DNA from: a bacterium
Lineage (GTDB): Bacteria > Electryoneota > Electryoneia > Electryoneales > Electryoneaceae
Assembly (NCBI GenBank): GCA_963669175.1
Contig: OY769902.1
Coordinates: 4,448,001-4,512,000 of the forward strand
DNA length: 64,000 nucleotides
Reading direction: 5' to 3'
Position numbers and translations under genes: made by a program. The notes under the pieces are model-generated. The model was not told the DNA's origin. It worked only from the letters and a program-made list of their open reading frames with translations, and ran no database searches. Positions 34,717 through 62,983 of this stretch are shown in pieces. How positions within the stretch are numbered: the stretch's first letter is position 1; each line of letters begins with the position of its first letter.

Positions 34717-35324
34717 AGCAGGCTTTAGCCTGCTCCTCTTAGACCCCGGCTTTAGCCCTGTCTCTTTCCCACATCTTCTGAAAGCTGTATCAGTAAAAGA
34801 GTTGTGGACATAGCATTTTTAGAATCCCGGCGGGATTCCCTATTTTAGCATAGTGTACAGGCCGTCTGTTTGGCCTGTACACTATGTCAGGTATTCTAAC
34901 GAATAATCAACCCTGGAAGGGTTGCATAATATGCGATTCATATTAGTACGTTCAATAAATACAGGGAATAACGCATTTTATATTCTATACAAACCAATTG
35001 GGTGTAAATTATACGTTATACAACCCTTCCAGGGTTGAGATAAGGTTTGATCTTTTTCGTAGGGTAGACGCTAAACAGACAGCGTCAACCCTACGCTAAA
35101 ATATACCACCCCCTCTGGGGTGGCAGAAACACGAAGATGTGAGCAAGAGACAGGGCTTTAGCCGGGGGAACAAGGAAAACAACCGTTCGAGCGCCCTTCA
35201 GGGTGCTTTCCTGATACGTATTGATTCGATGACGTTCAAGCACGCTAAAGCGCGCTCATAGCTTTTGTTATATCCATCCACCCGGCTAAAGCCGGGTGCT
35301 AAGGGGAGCCTGCTGAAGCAGGCT
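34717..35324. repeat. REP-like six-hairpin host element A (~200 bp) containing MITE copy A
   Basis: Hairpins centred on cttTag, ctaaag, cttcag and ctgaag, arranged symmetrically. Confidence 0.85.
34758..35153. mobile_element. 396-bp MITE with Tn5/IS50-like ends, copy A
   Basis: Ends ctgtctctttcccacatct / agatgtgagcaagagacag; flanking duplication ggctttagcc. Confidence 0.9.
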
Positions 35325-46567: not shown

Positions 46568-46775
46568 TATTAGCGGGCTTTAGCCCGCTCTTTTTAGCAC
46601 CCGGCTTCAGCCCTGTCTCTTACCCACATCTTCTGAAAGCTGTATCAGTAAAAGAGTTGTGGACATAGCATTTTTAGAATCCCGGCGGGATTCCCTATTT
46701 TAGCATAGTGTACAGGCCGTCTGTTTGGCCTGTACACTATGTCAGGTATTCTAACGAATAATCAACCCTGGAAGG

Positions 46776-48087
46776 CAGAACTGTCCGGTTTAACAGATCA
46801 TTTTTCTTGCTGACGTAGTGTCAGCCATATTCCGTTTTCGTTTTGTTCTTTGAGATTCTTGCCACGCATGGTTTATCGGCGTTTGCATCAACGCATGGAC
46901 AGCCAGGAACACCATCAGCCGATGAGCAGTGATTGCTTGATTGGGTGCTTGTTGCTCGATGATTCGCACCATCAGGTAGGCGATCATGGCGATCCAGACC
47001 TGGATCAACACTGCATTCATGTCGGTTCCCAGGTAGGTCTTGATCTTCAGGTTCTGCTTGATCCATTTGAAGAACAGTTCGATCTGCCAACGTTCCCGGT
47101 ACAGGTCGGCAATCACCAGCGCATCCACATCAAGCAGGTTGGTCAGGAACTCAAGATCGTTGCCGGTTTCGGGATCGACGAAGCGGATCAGGCGCAACGG
47201 TTCGGGGCAGTTAACGCCGCAATCGCCGTCGAGATAACCAATCCAGTCACGTCGAACACCTGCTTTTCGGTCGCAGTGACGTCGTTCTTCATACCCGAAG
47301 CCGATGTTACGCTTGATCCGCGTGACAAAGAAAACACCTTGGTTGCATAACTGGTAGAACCAAGCGCTATCGAAGTACCCTTTGTCGAACAAGACAGTAT
47401 CGCCTGGATGGAAGCGGAACTTTCGTCCCTGGGGCATATCGTGGCCTCGCGCGGCGGTCACCCTGATGACACTTGGGATGTAGCCATCATGATCGAGCTG
47501 GGTGTGCAACTTCATCCCGCCCTTGCGTGTTCTGTATTCAGCCCAGCCGAACAGGGTCTGACACAAGGGGATCACAGTGCTGTCCAAGCTGAACAGTTTT
47601 CCGGGCACATCGAACGTATGACGCGGAAATTGATCCTTGACTGTTGCGAACAGGCTGTAGAACAGATCGCGGTAGAACATCCAGGGAACACGAAGATTTG
47701 CCTCTGCAAGAGTAGAACGGGGCGTCTGGCGTATTCCACAGCGACGTTGTACAGGTGTCAAAGCTACCGTCGCCTGCTCAATCTGGCGGAGCGATGGCAG
47801 TCCGGCCAGTTGCGCGAAAAGCATAACCGCGAAGTGCGCGCGGGCCGTCATCTTCCGAACACCTTTGTTGACCTGATACTGCGTAGCAAGATTATCAAAG
47901 AGCACAGGTTCAATCAGGGCAAGCATTTGCCCCAGAACAATGTTACCTTTCGCCATGGCTTGGTCCTCCGGTCGTGGTGAGAAAACTTGTGCAAAAGCAA
48001 TCTCAACACACGAACCTCTGGATTCAAGCCATTATTATTTCAAGAGCTCCATGGCTCCATATGCAAATCACGAACCGGACAGTTCTG
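46776..48087 (-). mobile_element. IS4-family insertion sequence
   Basis: 15-bp inverted ends cagaactgtccggtt / aaccggacagttctg; 9-bp duplication cctggaagg. Confidence 0.95.
46790..47956 (-). CDS. IS4 transposase (DUF4372 + DDE_Tnp_1)
   Basis: LDST, GMKLH, FDKGY and the YREK-type motif YRERWQIELFFK. Confidence 0.95.
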   Translation of the reverse strand: MAKGNIVLGQMLALIEPVLFDNLATQYQVNKGVRKMTARAHFAVMLFAQLAGLPSLRQIEQATVALTPVQRRCGIRQTPRSTLAEANLRVPWMFYRDLFYSLFATVKDQFPRHTFDVPGKLFSLDSTVIPLCQTLFGWAEYRTRKGGMKLHTQLDHDGYIPSVIRVTAARGHDMPQGRKFRFHPGDTVLFDKGYFDSAWFYQLCNQGVFFVTRIKRNIGFGYEERRHCDRKAGVRRDWIGYLDGDCGVNCPEPLRLIRFVDPETGNDLEFLTNLLDVDALVIADLYRERWQIELFFKWIKQNLKIKTYLGTDMNAVLIQVWIAMIAYLMVRIIEQQAPNQAITAHRLMVFLAVHALMQTPINHAWQESQRTKRKRNMADTTSARKMIC

Positions 48088-48651
48088 CCTGGAAGGGTTG
48101 CATAATACGCGATTCATATTAGTACGTTCAATAAATACAGGAAATAACGCATTTTATATTCTATACAAACCAATTGGGTGTAAATTATACGTTATGCAAC
48201 CCTTCCAGGGTTGAGATAAGGTTTGATCTTTTTCGTAGGGTAGACGCTAAACAGACAGCGTCAACCCTACGCTAAAATATACCACCCCCTCTGGGGTGGC
48301 AGAAACACGAAGATGTGAGCAAGAGACAGGGCTTCAGCCGGGGTGAAAAGATACTGAAAATCATTCTGAGCGCGCTTTAGCGTGCTTGCCTGTTACAAAT
48401 CCTGGTTCTGGAAAGCACCCTGAAGGGCGCTCGCCACTTCTAAATTGCCATGAACACCCCGGCTGAAGCCGGGTGCTAAGAAGAGCCTGCTGAAGCAGGC
48501 TGAAAACTGTTAAATCTACACAAACTTCAGGTAATCATAATAATATGGATAAATCTTCATTTCGAAGTAAAGGTCCGTTGCCGGGTTGCTGAGAACACAA
48601 AACGCGCCGTACCACTAAAAAAGTCATAGAAGCAAAAGCCCCTCTCACCAC

Positions 48652-61453: not shown

Positions 61454-61705
61454 TTACTATCAGCTATCCAGAACAAACCTTGCTTTTCCACTACCATGTG
61501 GATAAAACAGGGATATAATTTACAGGACAAGGCCAAAAACTTCAGCAAAGTCAAAAGAATCTAACTATCCTCAGAGTCTGTTCTTTACAACAACCAGGTC
61601 AATAGTATTTTCGTTCTTGAAAGTATAGCGGTTGCCGAAAGTTTCTGCTGATTGAATAGCCGTTAGCCTGCTTCAGCAGGCTCCTCTTAGCACCCGGCTT
61701 TAGCC

Positions 61706-62101
61706 CTGTCTCTTACCCACATCTTCTGAAAGCTGTATCAGTAAAAGAGTTGTGGACATAGCATTTTTAGAATCCCGGCGGGATTCCCTATTTTAGCATA
61801 GTGTACAGGCCGTCTGTTTGGCCTGTACACTATGTCAGGTATTCTAACGAATAATCAACCCTGGAAGGGTTGCATAATACGCGATTCATATTAGTACGTT
61901 CAATAAATACAGGAAATAACGCATTTTATATTCTATACAAACCAATTGGGTGTAAATTATACGTTATGCAACCCTTCCAGGGTTGAGATAAGGTTTGATC
62001 TTTTTCGTAGGGTAGACGCTAAACAGACAGCGTCAACCCTACGCTAAAATATACCACCCCCTCTGGGGTGGCAGAAACACGAAGATGTGAGCAAGAGACA
62101 G
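61706..62101. mobile_element. 396-bp MITE copy C
   Basis: Ends ctgtctcttacccacatct / agatgtgagcaagagacag; duplication ggctttagcc. Confidence 0.9.
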
Positions 62102-62266
62102 GGCTTTAGCCGGGTGAAAGGAGATAAGCGAAAATATGAGCGCGCTTTAGCGTGCTTGCATGTGACAAAGAATATGCATCTGAAAAGCACCCTGAAGGGC
62201 GCTCGATTAACTGGACATATGTTACCCATAGCTAAAGCTGTGGGCTAAGAGGAGCAGGCTAAAGCC

Positions 62267-62661
62267 CTGTCTCTTACCCACATCCTCTGAAAGCTTTTTC
62301 AGCAAAAGGATTGTGGACATCGCATTTTTAGAATCCCGGCGGGATTCCCTATTTTAGCATAGTGTACAGGCCGTCTGTTTGGCCTGTACACTATGTCAGG
62401 ATTTCTAACGAACAATCAACCCTGGAAGGGTTGCATAATGAGCAGTCAATATTAGTTTATTCAATTATTACAGGTAATAACGTAATTTATATCCTTTATA
62501 AATCAATTGGGTATCAATTATACTTTATGCAACCCTTTCAGGGTTGATATGAGGTTTGATCTTTTTCGTAGGGTAGGCGCTAAACAGACAGCGCCTACCC
62601 TACGCTAAAATATCCCACCCCCACGGGGTGGCAGAAACACGAAGATGTGAGTAAGAGACAG
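62267..62661. mobile_element. 395-bp MITE copy D (diverged)
   Basis: Ends ctgtctcttacccacatcc / agatgtgagtaagagacag; duplication ggctaaagcc. Confidence 0.9.
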
Positions 62662-62983
62662 GGCTAAAGCCTGCTAAACTAGCAAGTTATTTGTTCCCAT
62701 AGGATTGTAATTCATGATATGCTATTGCCGTGGAACCACTGCTTTGTTATAGATACTCAGCCAAAGGCAGCCCTGTTATCAACCTGAAACAGCAAGGACT
62801 TCCAAGAAATACTACAAGTTGTGATGAATGCGCTTAAACGTCATTCCCGCGAACCGTAGCGAAGCGACGTTTGCGGTGTGCGAAGCACAGCCGCACATAT
62901 ACTCCCTTCGAAAAACAGGAGGAGAACCCTGATCAAGTCAAGGATGACCTAACCGGAACTTACTTTCAAGATTGACTATAGCG

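Follow-up and report, generated by a model that had tools for sequence, protein, structure and literature searches.

Miniature elements with IS50/Tn5-like ends preferentially occupy the apices of REP-type hairpins in a genome assembly without a cognate transposase

Tn5 is a workhorse of genomics that is described as weak in target preference, and in the paradigm derived from it, a transposase dimer synapses both ends and cuts out the element, which is then inserted at a staggered cut, leaving a target duplication of 9 bp. Other insertion sequences (IS), including IS1397 from another family, target repetitive extragenic palindromic (REP) sequences. Here, we describe a MITE (miniature inverted-repeat transposable element) with Tn5-like ends, of which four copies lie in a 64,000-bp stretch of a genome of the bacterial family Electryoneaceae (G000:C1:4448001-4512000; the whole stretch is hereafter called the window). 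The genome is represented by one contig of 5.447 Mb with 50% G+C and is 95.9% complete by markers.

The IS50 subgroup is defined in PMC2266710, which describes 5'-NT extremities for the IS10 and IS50 subgroups and duplications of approximately one helical turn for the family. ISRm22 of Sinorhizobium meliloti, which belongs to the IS4 family (IS4Sa subgroup), inserts at the axis of palindromy of REP sequences (PMC1525189, PMC2266710), and some of its direct repeats are imperfect, which has been attributed to recombination between copies (PMC1525189). Furthermore, REP sequences are preferred insertion sites for ISPpu9, ISPpu10, and ISPa11 of IS110 (PMC1525189), whose elements use an RNA guide (PMC11208160). 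The MITE described here shares properties with both groups, and a Tn5/IS50-like lineage of DDE transposases in this bacterial family has, in our view, very probably mobilized it in trans.

All four copies that an initial annotation had placed in the window were found, each on the + strand. Copy 1 (34758..35153; subfamily A, 396 bp), whose left end carries T at position 10, lies between a 10-bp duplication, GGCTTTAGCC (34748-34757 and 35154-35163). Copy 2 (46613..48329; subfamily A) is interrupted by a nested IS, its 1717 bp corresponding to 396 + 1312 + 9 bp, and is flanked by GGCTTCAGCC (46603-46612 and 48330-48339). Copy 3 (61706..62101) represents the master sequence of subfamily A, being identical to 12 other copies in the genome, with GGCTTTAGCC duplicated at 61696-61705 and 62102-62111. 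Copy 4 (62267..62661; subfamily B, 395 bp), which shows 89.6% identity to copy 3, is flanked by the duplication GGCTAAAGCC (62257-62266 and 62662-62671) in a host hairpin of the GCAGGC...GCCTGC type. As annotated, the flanking 10-mers are the same on both sides of each copy, with TT, TC, TT, and AA at their respective centers. All these targets are hairpin tips, either CCC-GGCTNNAGCC-GGG or GCA-GGCTNNAGCC-TGC, within a multi-hairpin host repeat.

The terminal repeats of 19 bp, read from copy 3 as CTGTCTCTTACCCACATCT on the left (61706..61724, + strand; presumed transposase binding/cleavage site) and CTGTCTCTTGCTCACATCT on the right (62083..62101, - strand as read), are inverted and 16-17/19 alike. 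Each of these 19-mers has 8 sites in the window at ≤3 mismatches, compared to 0.01-0.05 from shuffled sequences; copy 4 terminates in ...ATCC. The identities to known ends were recomputed against the exact mosaic end taken from contig ends of genome G032 and the IS50 ends of the metagenome locus L045, and the values of the initial annotation proved correct: the left end matches the Tn5 mosaic end at 17/19 positions, and the right end matches the mosaic end at 16/19 and the IS50 inside end at 17/19.

Searching the whole genome for both 19-mers at ≤3 mismatches, as the initial annotation had suggested, revealed 44 inverted end pairs and 4 unpaired ends. The ends of all 44 copies begin with CTGTCTCTT, and 42 copies span 395-398 bp, with the other two reaching 870 and 1717 bp via nested insertions. 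The uniform orientation noted for the window is confined to it, since 26 copies lie on the + strand and 18 on the - strand of the genome. The claim that the copies contain no transposase stands for the MITE itself, which is gene-less (the longest open reading frame [ORF] wholly inside it has 38 aa in copy A and 61 aa in copy B), but not for the 1717-bp copy, which holds the transposase gene of an unrelated IS. Subfamily A comprises 29 short copies and the two long ones, which are 98.5-100% alike, and subfamily B comprises 12 copies with 88.9-90.2% identity to A; one further copy, at 92.9%, resembles an A/B hybrid. Contig depths of run X1 (approximately 720 for subfamily A and 275 for subfamily B, compared to approximately 25 in unique flanks) agree with copy numbers of 31 and 12, respectively. 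With 13 copies being identical and about 31 sharing 98.5-100% identity, the family has expanded recently, subfamily B being the older one.

Beyond the assembly, marine metagenome runs of two further studies yielded contigs with diverged variants of the MITE, and across 40 relatives, the sole match to MITE DNA was a 53-bp internal hairpin stretch in G001. The single-stranded element is predicted to fold with -90.1 kcal/mol (z -13.3 compared to shuffled sequences). No Rfam family reached its gathering score for the MITE, with weak look-alikes of miRNA-precursor hairpins as the only matches.

Perfect 10-bp duplications flank 36 of the 44 copies, and 42 distinct flank pairs were counted. The initial annotation had favored a duplication of 10 bp but allowed for 6 or 8 bp, given the palindromic target. 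The 11th base fails to extend the repeat, and several targets are not palindromic (GACTTGTGCG, GCCGTTAGTT, GACTTGAGTG, CTAATATACC, ACTATAAACC, GATATATAGC, and GGTATAAACG); since these fix the length, the duplication measures 10 bp, and the shorter alternatives are excluded. The element is thus short with inverted ends, has a duplication of fixed length at independent sites, and lacks a transposase gene of its own, as is characteristic of MITEs.

The flanks tabulated across the genome are far from random. GGCTNNAGCC is present on at least one side of 24 of the 44 insertions, and it occurs 223 times in the genome, compared to 84 occurrences expected from composition. Among the 178 GGCTNNAGCC sites without an adjoining MITE, 72 lie in a CCC|GGG and 42 in a GCA|TGC context, resulting in an occupancy of 20/92 for CCC-type and 3/45 for GCA-type sites. 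A palindrome centered exactly on the duplication, with at least 5 consecutive complementary pairs, was observed for 26/44 insertions but for only 0.9% of randomly drawn positions (n = 200,000); when the axis was given a tolerance of ≤1.5 nt, the values were 29/44 and 3.3% (n = 100,000). A second palindromic repeat of lower perfection (aatagcgcgg-N10-ccggg) harbors several further sites. At the 21 sites that do not contain GGCTNNAGCC, the consensus base is G for positions 1-2, T for position 5, A for positions 6-7, and C for positions 9-10, with C-rich and G-rich flanks. Moreover, the 3-bp flanks are fully complementary at all 24 occupied GGCTNNAGCC sites, compared to 118 of the 178 unoccupied ones (Fisher p 1.8e-4). 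The target can be described as a symmetric, GC-clamped site, (C)CCGG | GG-C/T-T-W-W-A-R-CC | CCGG(G), of which the best and most abundant matches in the genome are the apices of REP-type hairpins, with CCCGGCTNNAGCCGGG foremost among them. With respect to the host repeat, the MITE occurs in either orientation, in keeping with the symmetry of the target. The strong targeting of hairpin apices proposed in the initial annotation was thereby upheld as a strong bias, i.e., a preference and not a rule.

The assignment of the host palindromes to the REP type follows from their association with Y1-transposase genes. Two of the 10 genes with a PF01797 domain (Y1-transposase; putative REP-associated tyrosine transposase, RAYT, with IS200-type TnpA as the alternative), located at G000:C1:1503099-1503437 and 5361261-5361596, are bordered on both sides by clusters of GGCTNNAGCC hairpins, an arrangement classically associated with REP sequences and RAYTs, and one MITE copy lies approximately 130 bp from such a cluster-flanked gene. 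The 178 unoccupied and 24 occupied GGCTNNAGCC sites, most of which belong to two hairpin types, are also in line with REP-type repeats. Just outside the first of these genes, short tandem repeats of approximately 27-40 bp were observed (1502401-1502500 and 1503600-1503800).

This setting raises the question of whether most copies were carried along with REP clusters (by RAYT-driven copying, by gene conversion, or by recombination) instead of transposing themselves. Besides the Y1-transposase genes bordered by REP clusters, two copy pairs speak for such a route, as each has identical 30-bp flanks on both sides and shares 670-760 bp at 95-97% identity. One of these pairs (G000:C1:4233277-4233672 and copy 1 of the window, 34758-35153) even has a private end variant in common, namely the base at end position 10; the other consists of the copies at G000 2747524 and 4207394. 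In these pairs, the MITE may have been copied along with the REP cluster. However, with 42 distinct flank pairs among 44 copies and many sites outside REP clusters, each with its own 10-bp duplication, this route can account for a few copies only, and as the main mode of spread, it is very unlikely.

Indications of the mobilizing enzyme came from relatives. A scan of species-representative genomes for CTGTCTCTTNCNCACATCTTC yielded 7 stretches, three of them in G005 and one in G015; the other three, from metagenome-assembled genomes of Clostridiales/Lachnospiraceae, are without repeat structure and may be due to chance. In G015, the end CTGTCTCTTACGCGGATCT, next to GACTGAAGTC, adjoins a decayed gene with a Tn5-type Tnp_DNA_bind domain. 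Full-length homologs of this gene encode 459-464 aa with PF14706 and PF01609 domains and exhibit 41.8% identity to the transposase of IS50R, 97% of which is covered by the alignment. This transposase was found in 5 of the 79 genomes of the window's phylum. Four carriers belong to the same family as the window, with two full copies in G009, one copy cut by a contig end in G003, fragments in G015, and a fragment in G014; the fifth, G077, has a weaker match and belongs to another family. Residues 11-460 of the G009 protein (463 aa) align to the Tn5 transposase structure 1MUS with an E-value of 1.2e-88, whereby the motifs DTT, DREAD, and Y..RW.IEE.HKAWK (YREK signature) are kept. The same protein matches PF14706, PF01609, and NCBIfam NF033590, with PF02281 just below the cut-off. 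The expectation that the cognate enzyme family is IS50-like is therefore supported by domains, by identity to IS50R, and by the match to 1MUS.

The elements encoding these enzymes resemble the MITE in their ends as well as in their insertion sites. The IS of G009 (1476 bp; ends CTGTCTTTTAGTCACATCT and CTGTCTCTTAGTCACATTT) has a 10-bp duplication, GGTTCCATCC, at both of its copies, where the enclosing stems are CCCGGG or CCCGGT/ACCGGG. In G003, the IS adjoins ctcctcttcgcacccGGCTTCAGCC with its left end, the site cacccGGCTTCAGCC being of the host-repeat type of the window, and its right end, on another contig, adjoins caccccGGCTGAAGCC. A metagenome IS of 1485 bp (L038), for which ggtggcccggGACTTCAGTC... 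provides the palindromic axis of insertion, matches the MITE at 17/19 positions in the left end and likewise in the right end, compared to 15-16/19 crosswise. An autonomous IS with matching ends, as sought by the initial annotation, was thus found in sister genomes and metagenomes, but none is present in this genome. Furthermore, related MITEs were identified: those of G005 (L015) are 365 bp long, with ends CTGTCTCTTACCCACATCT and CTGTCTCTTACTCACTTCT and a 10-bp duplication, GACTTCAGTC, at a hairpin apex, and those of G004 and G007 are approximately 240-250 bp long, have the same ends, are situated at hairpin tips, and have approximately 40 bp of left subterminal sequence in common with the window MITE. 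The G004 element is flanked by the 10-bp duplication GACTGAAGTC, and the flanking 10-mers of the G007 element differ at one position. Overall, 9 of the family's 15 other genomes contain the end motif, all ends of the lineage start with CT, and 10-bp duplications were read in G009, G004, and G005, as in this genome. Within the 29 end-flanks outside this genome, G is found at position 1 of the adjoining 10-mer in 24 and C at position 10 in 23, with CT at positions 3-4 in 19 and AG at positions 7-8 in 21. The ends and the target consensus are therefore common to the IS lineage.

These sites also bear on how the target is read. Instead of base sequence, the enzyme might recognize DNA structure, i.e., the tip of an extruded cruciform or of a single-stranded hairpin. 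This would explain why complementarity and centering are kept across varied stems (CCCGGC/GCCGGG, GCAGGC/GCCTGC, GGCCGCC/GGCGGC, GATCCCCGG/CCGGGGATC, and CCCGGT/ACCGGG), why the duplicated 10 bp in G009 and G007 are non-palindromic and yet lie between complementary stems, and why complementary flanks are present at every occupied GGCTNNAGCC site (24/24) but at only 118/178 unoccupied ones. However, hairpin-free sites are used as well (e.g., ACTATAAACC, GATATATAGC, GGTATAAACG, and CTAATATACC), with GC-rich ends and an AT-rich center being kept, and the recurrence of the CT..AG core across genomes is expected for base-specific contacts of a symmetric dimer. Moreover, intergenic location is a confounder of the flank effect, and Tn5 has been described to prefer palindromic sites with terminal G/C pairs (PMC1525189). 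Recognition of structure is therefore regarded as possible but unlikely, and recognition of sequence or bendability is preferred over that of an extruded hairpin.

Given the resemblance to the mosaic end, an origin of the ends from Nextera/Tn5 adapter remnants or an assembly artifact had to be considered. The identity of 16-17/19 to the mosaic end could be taken to support it, as could the contigs of G032 and G026, two public genomes of the window's phylum, that bear the exact mosaic end at their termini. In contrast, the MITE ends have 2-3 fixed differences from the adapter, and they form 44 internal inverted pairs 396 bp apart in one contig, 36 of which have perfect 10-bp duplications. Furthermore, left and right ends differ in the way they do in autonomous IS from sister genomes, and the diverged element occurs in marine metagenome contigs from two other studies. 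With regard to the library adapters considered in the initial annotation, fixed differences, internal pairing, and duplications led us to reject the class of adapter remnants, whose probability is close to nil and which is already refuted by the anatomy of the element.

The exact mosaic ends in other genomes are a different matter. They were found within the first ~1-50 bases of G032 contigs C49, C134, and C258 and of G026 contigs C102 and C106, where they represent adapter contamination; in G032, the exact mosaic end is also present at two places far along other contigs. Natural IS50-like ends show where the resemblance of the MITE comes from. The metagenome loci L045, L051, and L052 carry IS50 ends, CTGACTCTTATACACAAGT (CTGACTCTTATACACAAAT in L052) and CTGTCTCTTGATCAGATCT, with L045 being IS50 itself, as it matches the Tn5 transposase at an E-value of 1.9e-299. 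In addition, many metagenome IS, whose transposases are approximately 40% identical to the cognate clade, have the ends CTGTCTCTTATACACAAAT and CTGTCTCTTGATCACAAGT, and the left end of this natural group matches the engineered mosaic end at 17/19 positions. The apparent duplications in IS50-like metagenome loci are 8, 9, or 10 bp long. Such loci (L042, L047, L049, L053, L058, and L060-L067) hold IS of approximately 1.5 kb and are widespread. As it is shared by many metagenome IS, CTGTCTCTT...CACA constitutes the natural consensus of the IS50-like group, and since both the MITE and the mosaic end are near this consensus, their resemblance reflects homology and not contamination. It also follows from the 17/19 identity of natural ends that adapter-like strings inside genomes are not always contamination.

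The initial annotation had assumed that an IS50-like transposase is encoded elsewhere in the genome, which did not hold for this assembly in profile, tblastn, and end-pair searches. PF02281 and PF14706, the Tn5 dimerization and DNA-binding families, gave 0 matches in the genome at E≤1, a profile of the cognate clade gave none at the same threshold, and tblastn with four members of the clade reached a best E-value of 0.55. Likewise, no end-like pairs 0.5-4 kb apart were found in the genome except for the two copies with nested insertions. As the genome is without a cognate transposase, the MITE family is orphaned here. The enzyme may have been lost recently, may reside on an unassembled replicon or in other cells, or may have been present transiently via transfer.

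Two alternatives to an orphaned family were evaluated. First, one of the resident DDE_Tnp_1 IS could cross-mobilize the MITE, for which the genome offers 12 PF01609 matches belonging to four IS types, all with open frames. However, the ends of these IS are unrelated to the MITE ends (CACTGCTGTCCGGT, CAGAACTGTCCGGTT, GTCGTCTCTGAAG, and CTCGGTTTTG), their readable duplications differ in length and sequence, and none of them has the Tn5-type DNA-binding domain, rendering this alternative highly improbable. Second, the family could still be active, with its transposase carried by an unassembled plasmid or phage or by a subpopulation of variant cells, or could be sustained by repeated horizontal transfer. 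The 13 identical copies, together with star-like variants differing by 1-2 bases, point to very recent movement, and the enzyme lineage exists in sister genera of the family and in metagenomes. On the other hand, the one-contig, 95.9% complete genome is without a gene fragment, and unlike G015 and G014, it harbors no decayed remnant, so that we consider ongoing activity unlikely.

Our preferred reading thus remains movement in trans by the Tn5/IS50-like lineage of the family, and we infer from the comparisons above the role of this lineage as the mover, the cut-and-paste chemistry, and the manner of target recognition. Following the Tn5 paradigm, a transposase dimer would bind both 19-bp ends (CTGTCTCTT-NNN-CACATCT), and the element would be excised by cut-and-paste. 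It would then be joined to target strands cut 10 bp apart, and repair of the gaps would create the 10-bp duplication. In sequence comparison, the MITE is linked to this enzyme by approximately 21 terminal bases, the correspondence of left and right ends, the length of the duplication, and the shared target.

Several observations weigh against this reading, in part or as a whole. At 15 of the 44 sites, no stem of at least 5 pairs is found near the center of the duplication, and the comparison of complementary flanks is confounded, as non-palindromic sites may be genic and REP copies are not independent of each other. When subfamilies A and B were compared with the collected IS loci by blastn, the similarity between MITE and IS was limited to 18-21 terminal bases, and, with similarity confined to ~21 terminal bases, an origin of the MITE by internal deletion of an IS is unsupported. 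A very recent burst, as indicated by 13 identical copies, sits uneasily with a one-contig genome that offers no source transposase. Furthermore, nothing in G001, the only genome of the same genus, bridged an insertion as an orthologous empty site would. For this comparison, queries of 16.8 kb and 14.5 kb covering five insertions were used, of which only coding blocks align, at ~73% identity and on many small contigs. Finally, 8 of the 44 duplications are imperfect.

Contigs of the runs X1, X3, X4, and X5, a kind of read evidence that is blind to rare empty alleles, contained the repeat and diverged variants of it but no joint removing exactly one MITE and one copy of the duplication; the contig joints at 61705 run into other copies of the host repeat. 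In G001, one end identical to the right end of the MITE, CTGTCTCTTGCTCACATCT, was observed (G001:C24:26040-26202), beyond which unrelated sequence follows and leaves the contig after 163 bp.

With regard to the imperfect flanks, three differ only at the center of the palindrome, and two others have the same odd pair. The copies at G000:C1:1750582-1750977 and 3926219-3926613 exhibit reciprocal flank pairs (AA/TC and TC/AA), and further mismatched flanking 10-mers were observed at G000:C1 271929, 1183775, and 2144036. Mismatched flanks probably arise by exchange between near-identical copies, as proposed for ISRm22, and possibly point to MITE-mediated genome rearrangements. A flip of the center, with TC on one side and GA on the other, was considered as a signature of the mechanism but rejected, since it is explained by exchange between oppositely oriented copies in like repeats; in the case of L038, chimerism of the metagenome assembly is another possible cause of the flip.

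In comparison to Tn5 and IS50, the element described here is set apart by a duplication of 10 bp instead of the 9 bp of Tn5, by a far stronger target choice, and by a transposase with only about 42% identity to IS50R; moreover, the window element is a gene-less derivative of 396 bp. Three metagenome copies of IS50 showed no visible duplication, their flanks being mismatched. Likeness is found in the ends, which start with CT, share CTGTCTCTT and CACA with the inside end and the mosaic end, and are unequal on the left and right as are the outside and inside ends of IS50, as well as in the cognate transposase, whose domains are ordered as in Tn5 and which aligns with the solved Tn5 structure from one end to the other. 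The symmetric target with G/C at the ends of the duplication is likewise in agreement with the description of Tn5 (PMC1525189). With Tn5-like domains, 5'-NT ends, and a duplication of approximately one turn, the cognate lineage fits the IS50 subgroup, but its hosts are outside the proteobacteria, where most of this subgroup has been found (PMC2266710).

ISRm22 is similar to the window MITE in its affiliation with the IS4 family, its use of the REP palindromy axis, and the presence of some imperfect repeats; it differs in being autonomous, in its 6-bp repeats, and in its subgroup, whereas the repeats described here measure 10 bp and enclose a MITE whose ends are of the IS50 type. ISPpu9, ISPpu10, and ISPa11 rely on other recombinases and lack a duplication of one helical turn. 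As for bacterial MITEs such as Correia, RUP, Chunjie, and QMITE (PMC10969869), they are likewise small, gene-less, multicopy, mostly intergenic, and strongly folded, with terminal inverted repeats and a duplication; in the accessible portions of that review, IS50 appears solely in a figure legend on Tn5. In the full-text literature searched, no IS50-type MITE or MITE targeting REP apices was described, and no IS50-like lineage combining a 10-bp duplication with such a target was found, although the supplement of PMC2266710 may list one. The MITE family and the strongly site-selective IS50-like lineage are therefore apparently undescribed; they represent a variant of IS4-family elements and of IS that target REP sequences (e.g., ISRm22) and do not constitute a system of a new kind.

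Besides the regular copies, nested and incomplete forms were observed. The IS inside copy 2 of the window is unrelated to the MITE and spans 1312 bp on the - strand (46776..48087), with ends CAGAACTGTCCGGTT, a transposase of 388 aa (DDE_Tnp_1 + DUF4372; ORF 46790-47956, - strand), and its own 9-bp duplication, CCTGGAAGG (46767-46775 and 48088-48096). It landed in one internal hairpin of the MITE, and a second genome copy, recognized from the PF01609 match at G000 2421005-2421631, has the duplication AACCAACAT. The 870-bp copy (G000:C1:847595-848464) contains a nested hairpin-rich element of another kind, 474 bp in length, which sits in the loop of a long internal MITE hairpin, apparently between GCTAA repeats. 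The unpaired ends are located at G000:C1:518119 (-), 2154927 (-), 140818 (+), and 1393000 (-). Two of the four open into different hairpin-rich interiors, and one represents a truncated main MITE. Of the two with hairpin-rich interiors, one has an end, CTGACTCTTACACACATCT, that is nearer to the IS50 outside end, and the internal hairpin modules of the MITE recur there in reverse order. Further MITE families with such ends may therefore exist in the genome. Near both ends of the MITE, inward-facing terminator-like hairpins with T-runs were noted (61770-61796, + strand, and 62043-62073, - strand, and likewise in copy 4); in the region 61600-62750, 10 terminator-like sites, which are consensus matches only, were counted, compared to 0.8 expected from shuffled sequences. 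These hairpins could block read-through from either side.

With its cognate lineage, the MITE directs attention to a natural relative of Tn5, approximately 42% identical, which has a strong preference for a symmetric site and a stagger one base longer. Since this relative prefers a defined symmetric site, target recognition in the Tn5 family becomes directly testable. A more far-reaching proposal, which we put forward tentatively and regard as doubtful on present evidence, is that this Tn5-like lineage inserts in a nearly site-specific manner, with a 10-bp stagger at a GC-clamped hairpin apex, perhaps reading structure and possibly cross-reacting with the mosaic end. If true, target capture in the Tn5 family could be studied on a tractable complex, and tools of the tagmentation type with targeted insertion could be developed from it. 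For the genome itself, the 44 near-identical copies of 396 bp are likely substrates for rearrangement, and the MITE shows a parasite of REP clusters persisting after the loss of its enzyme.

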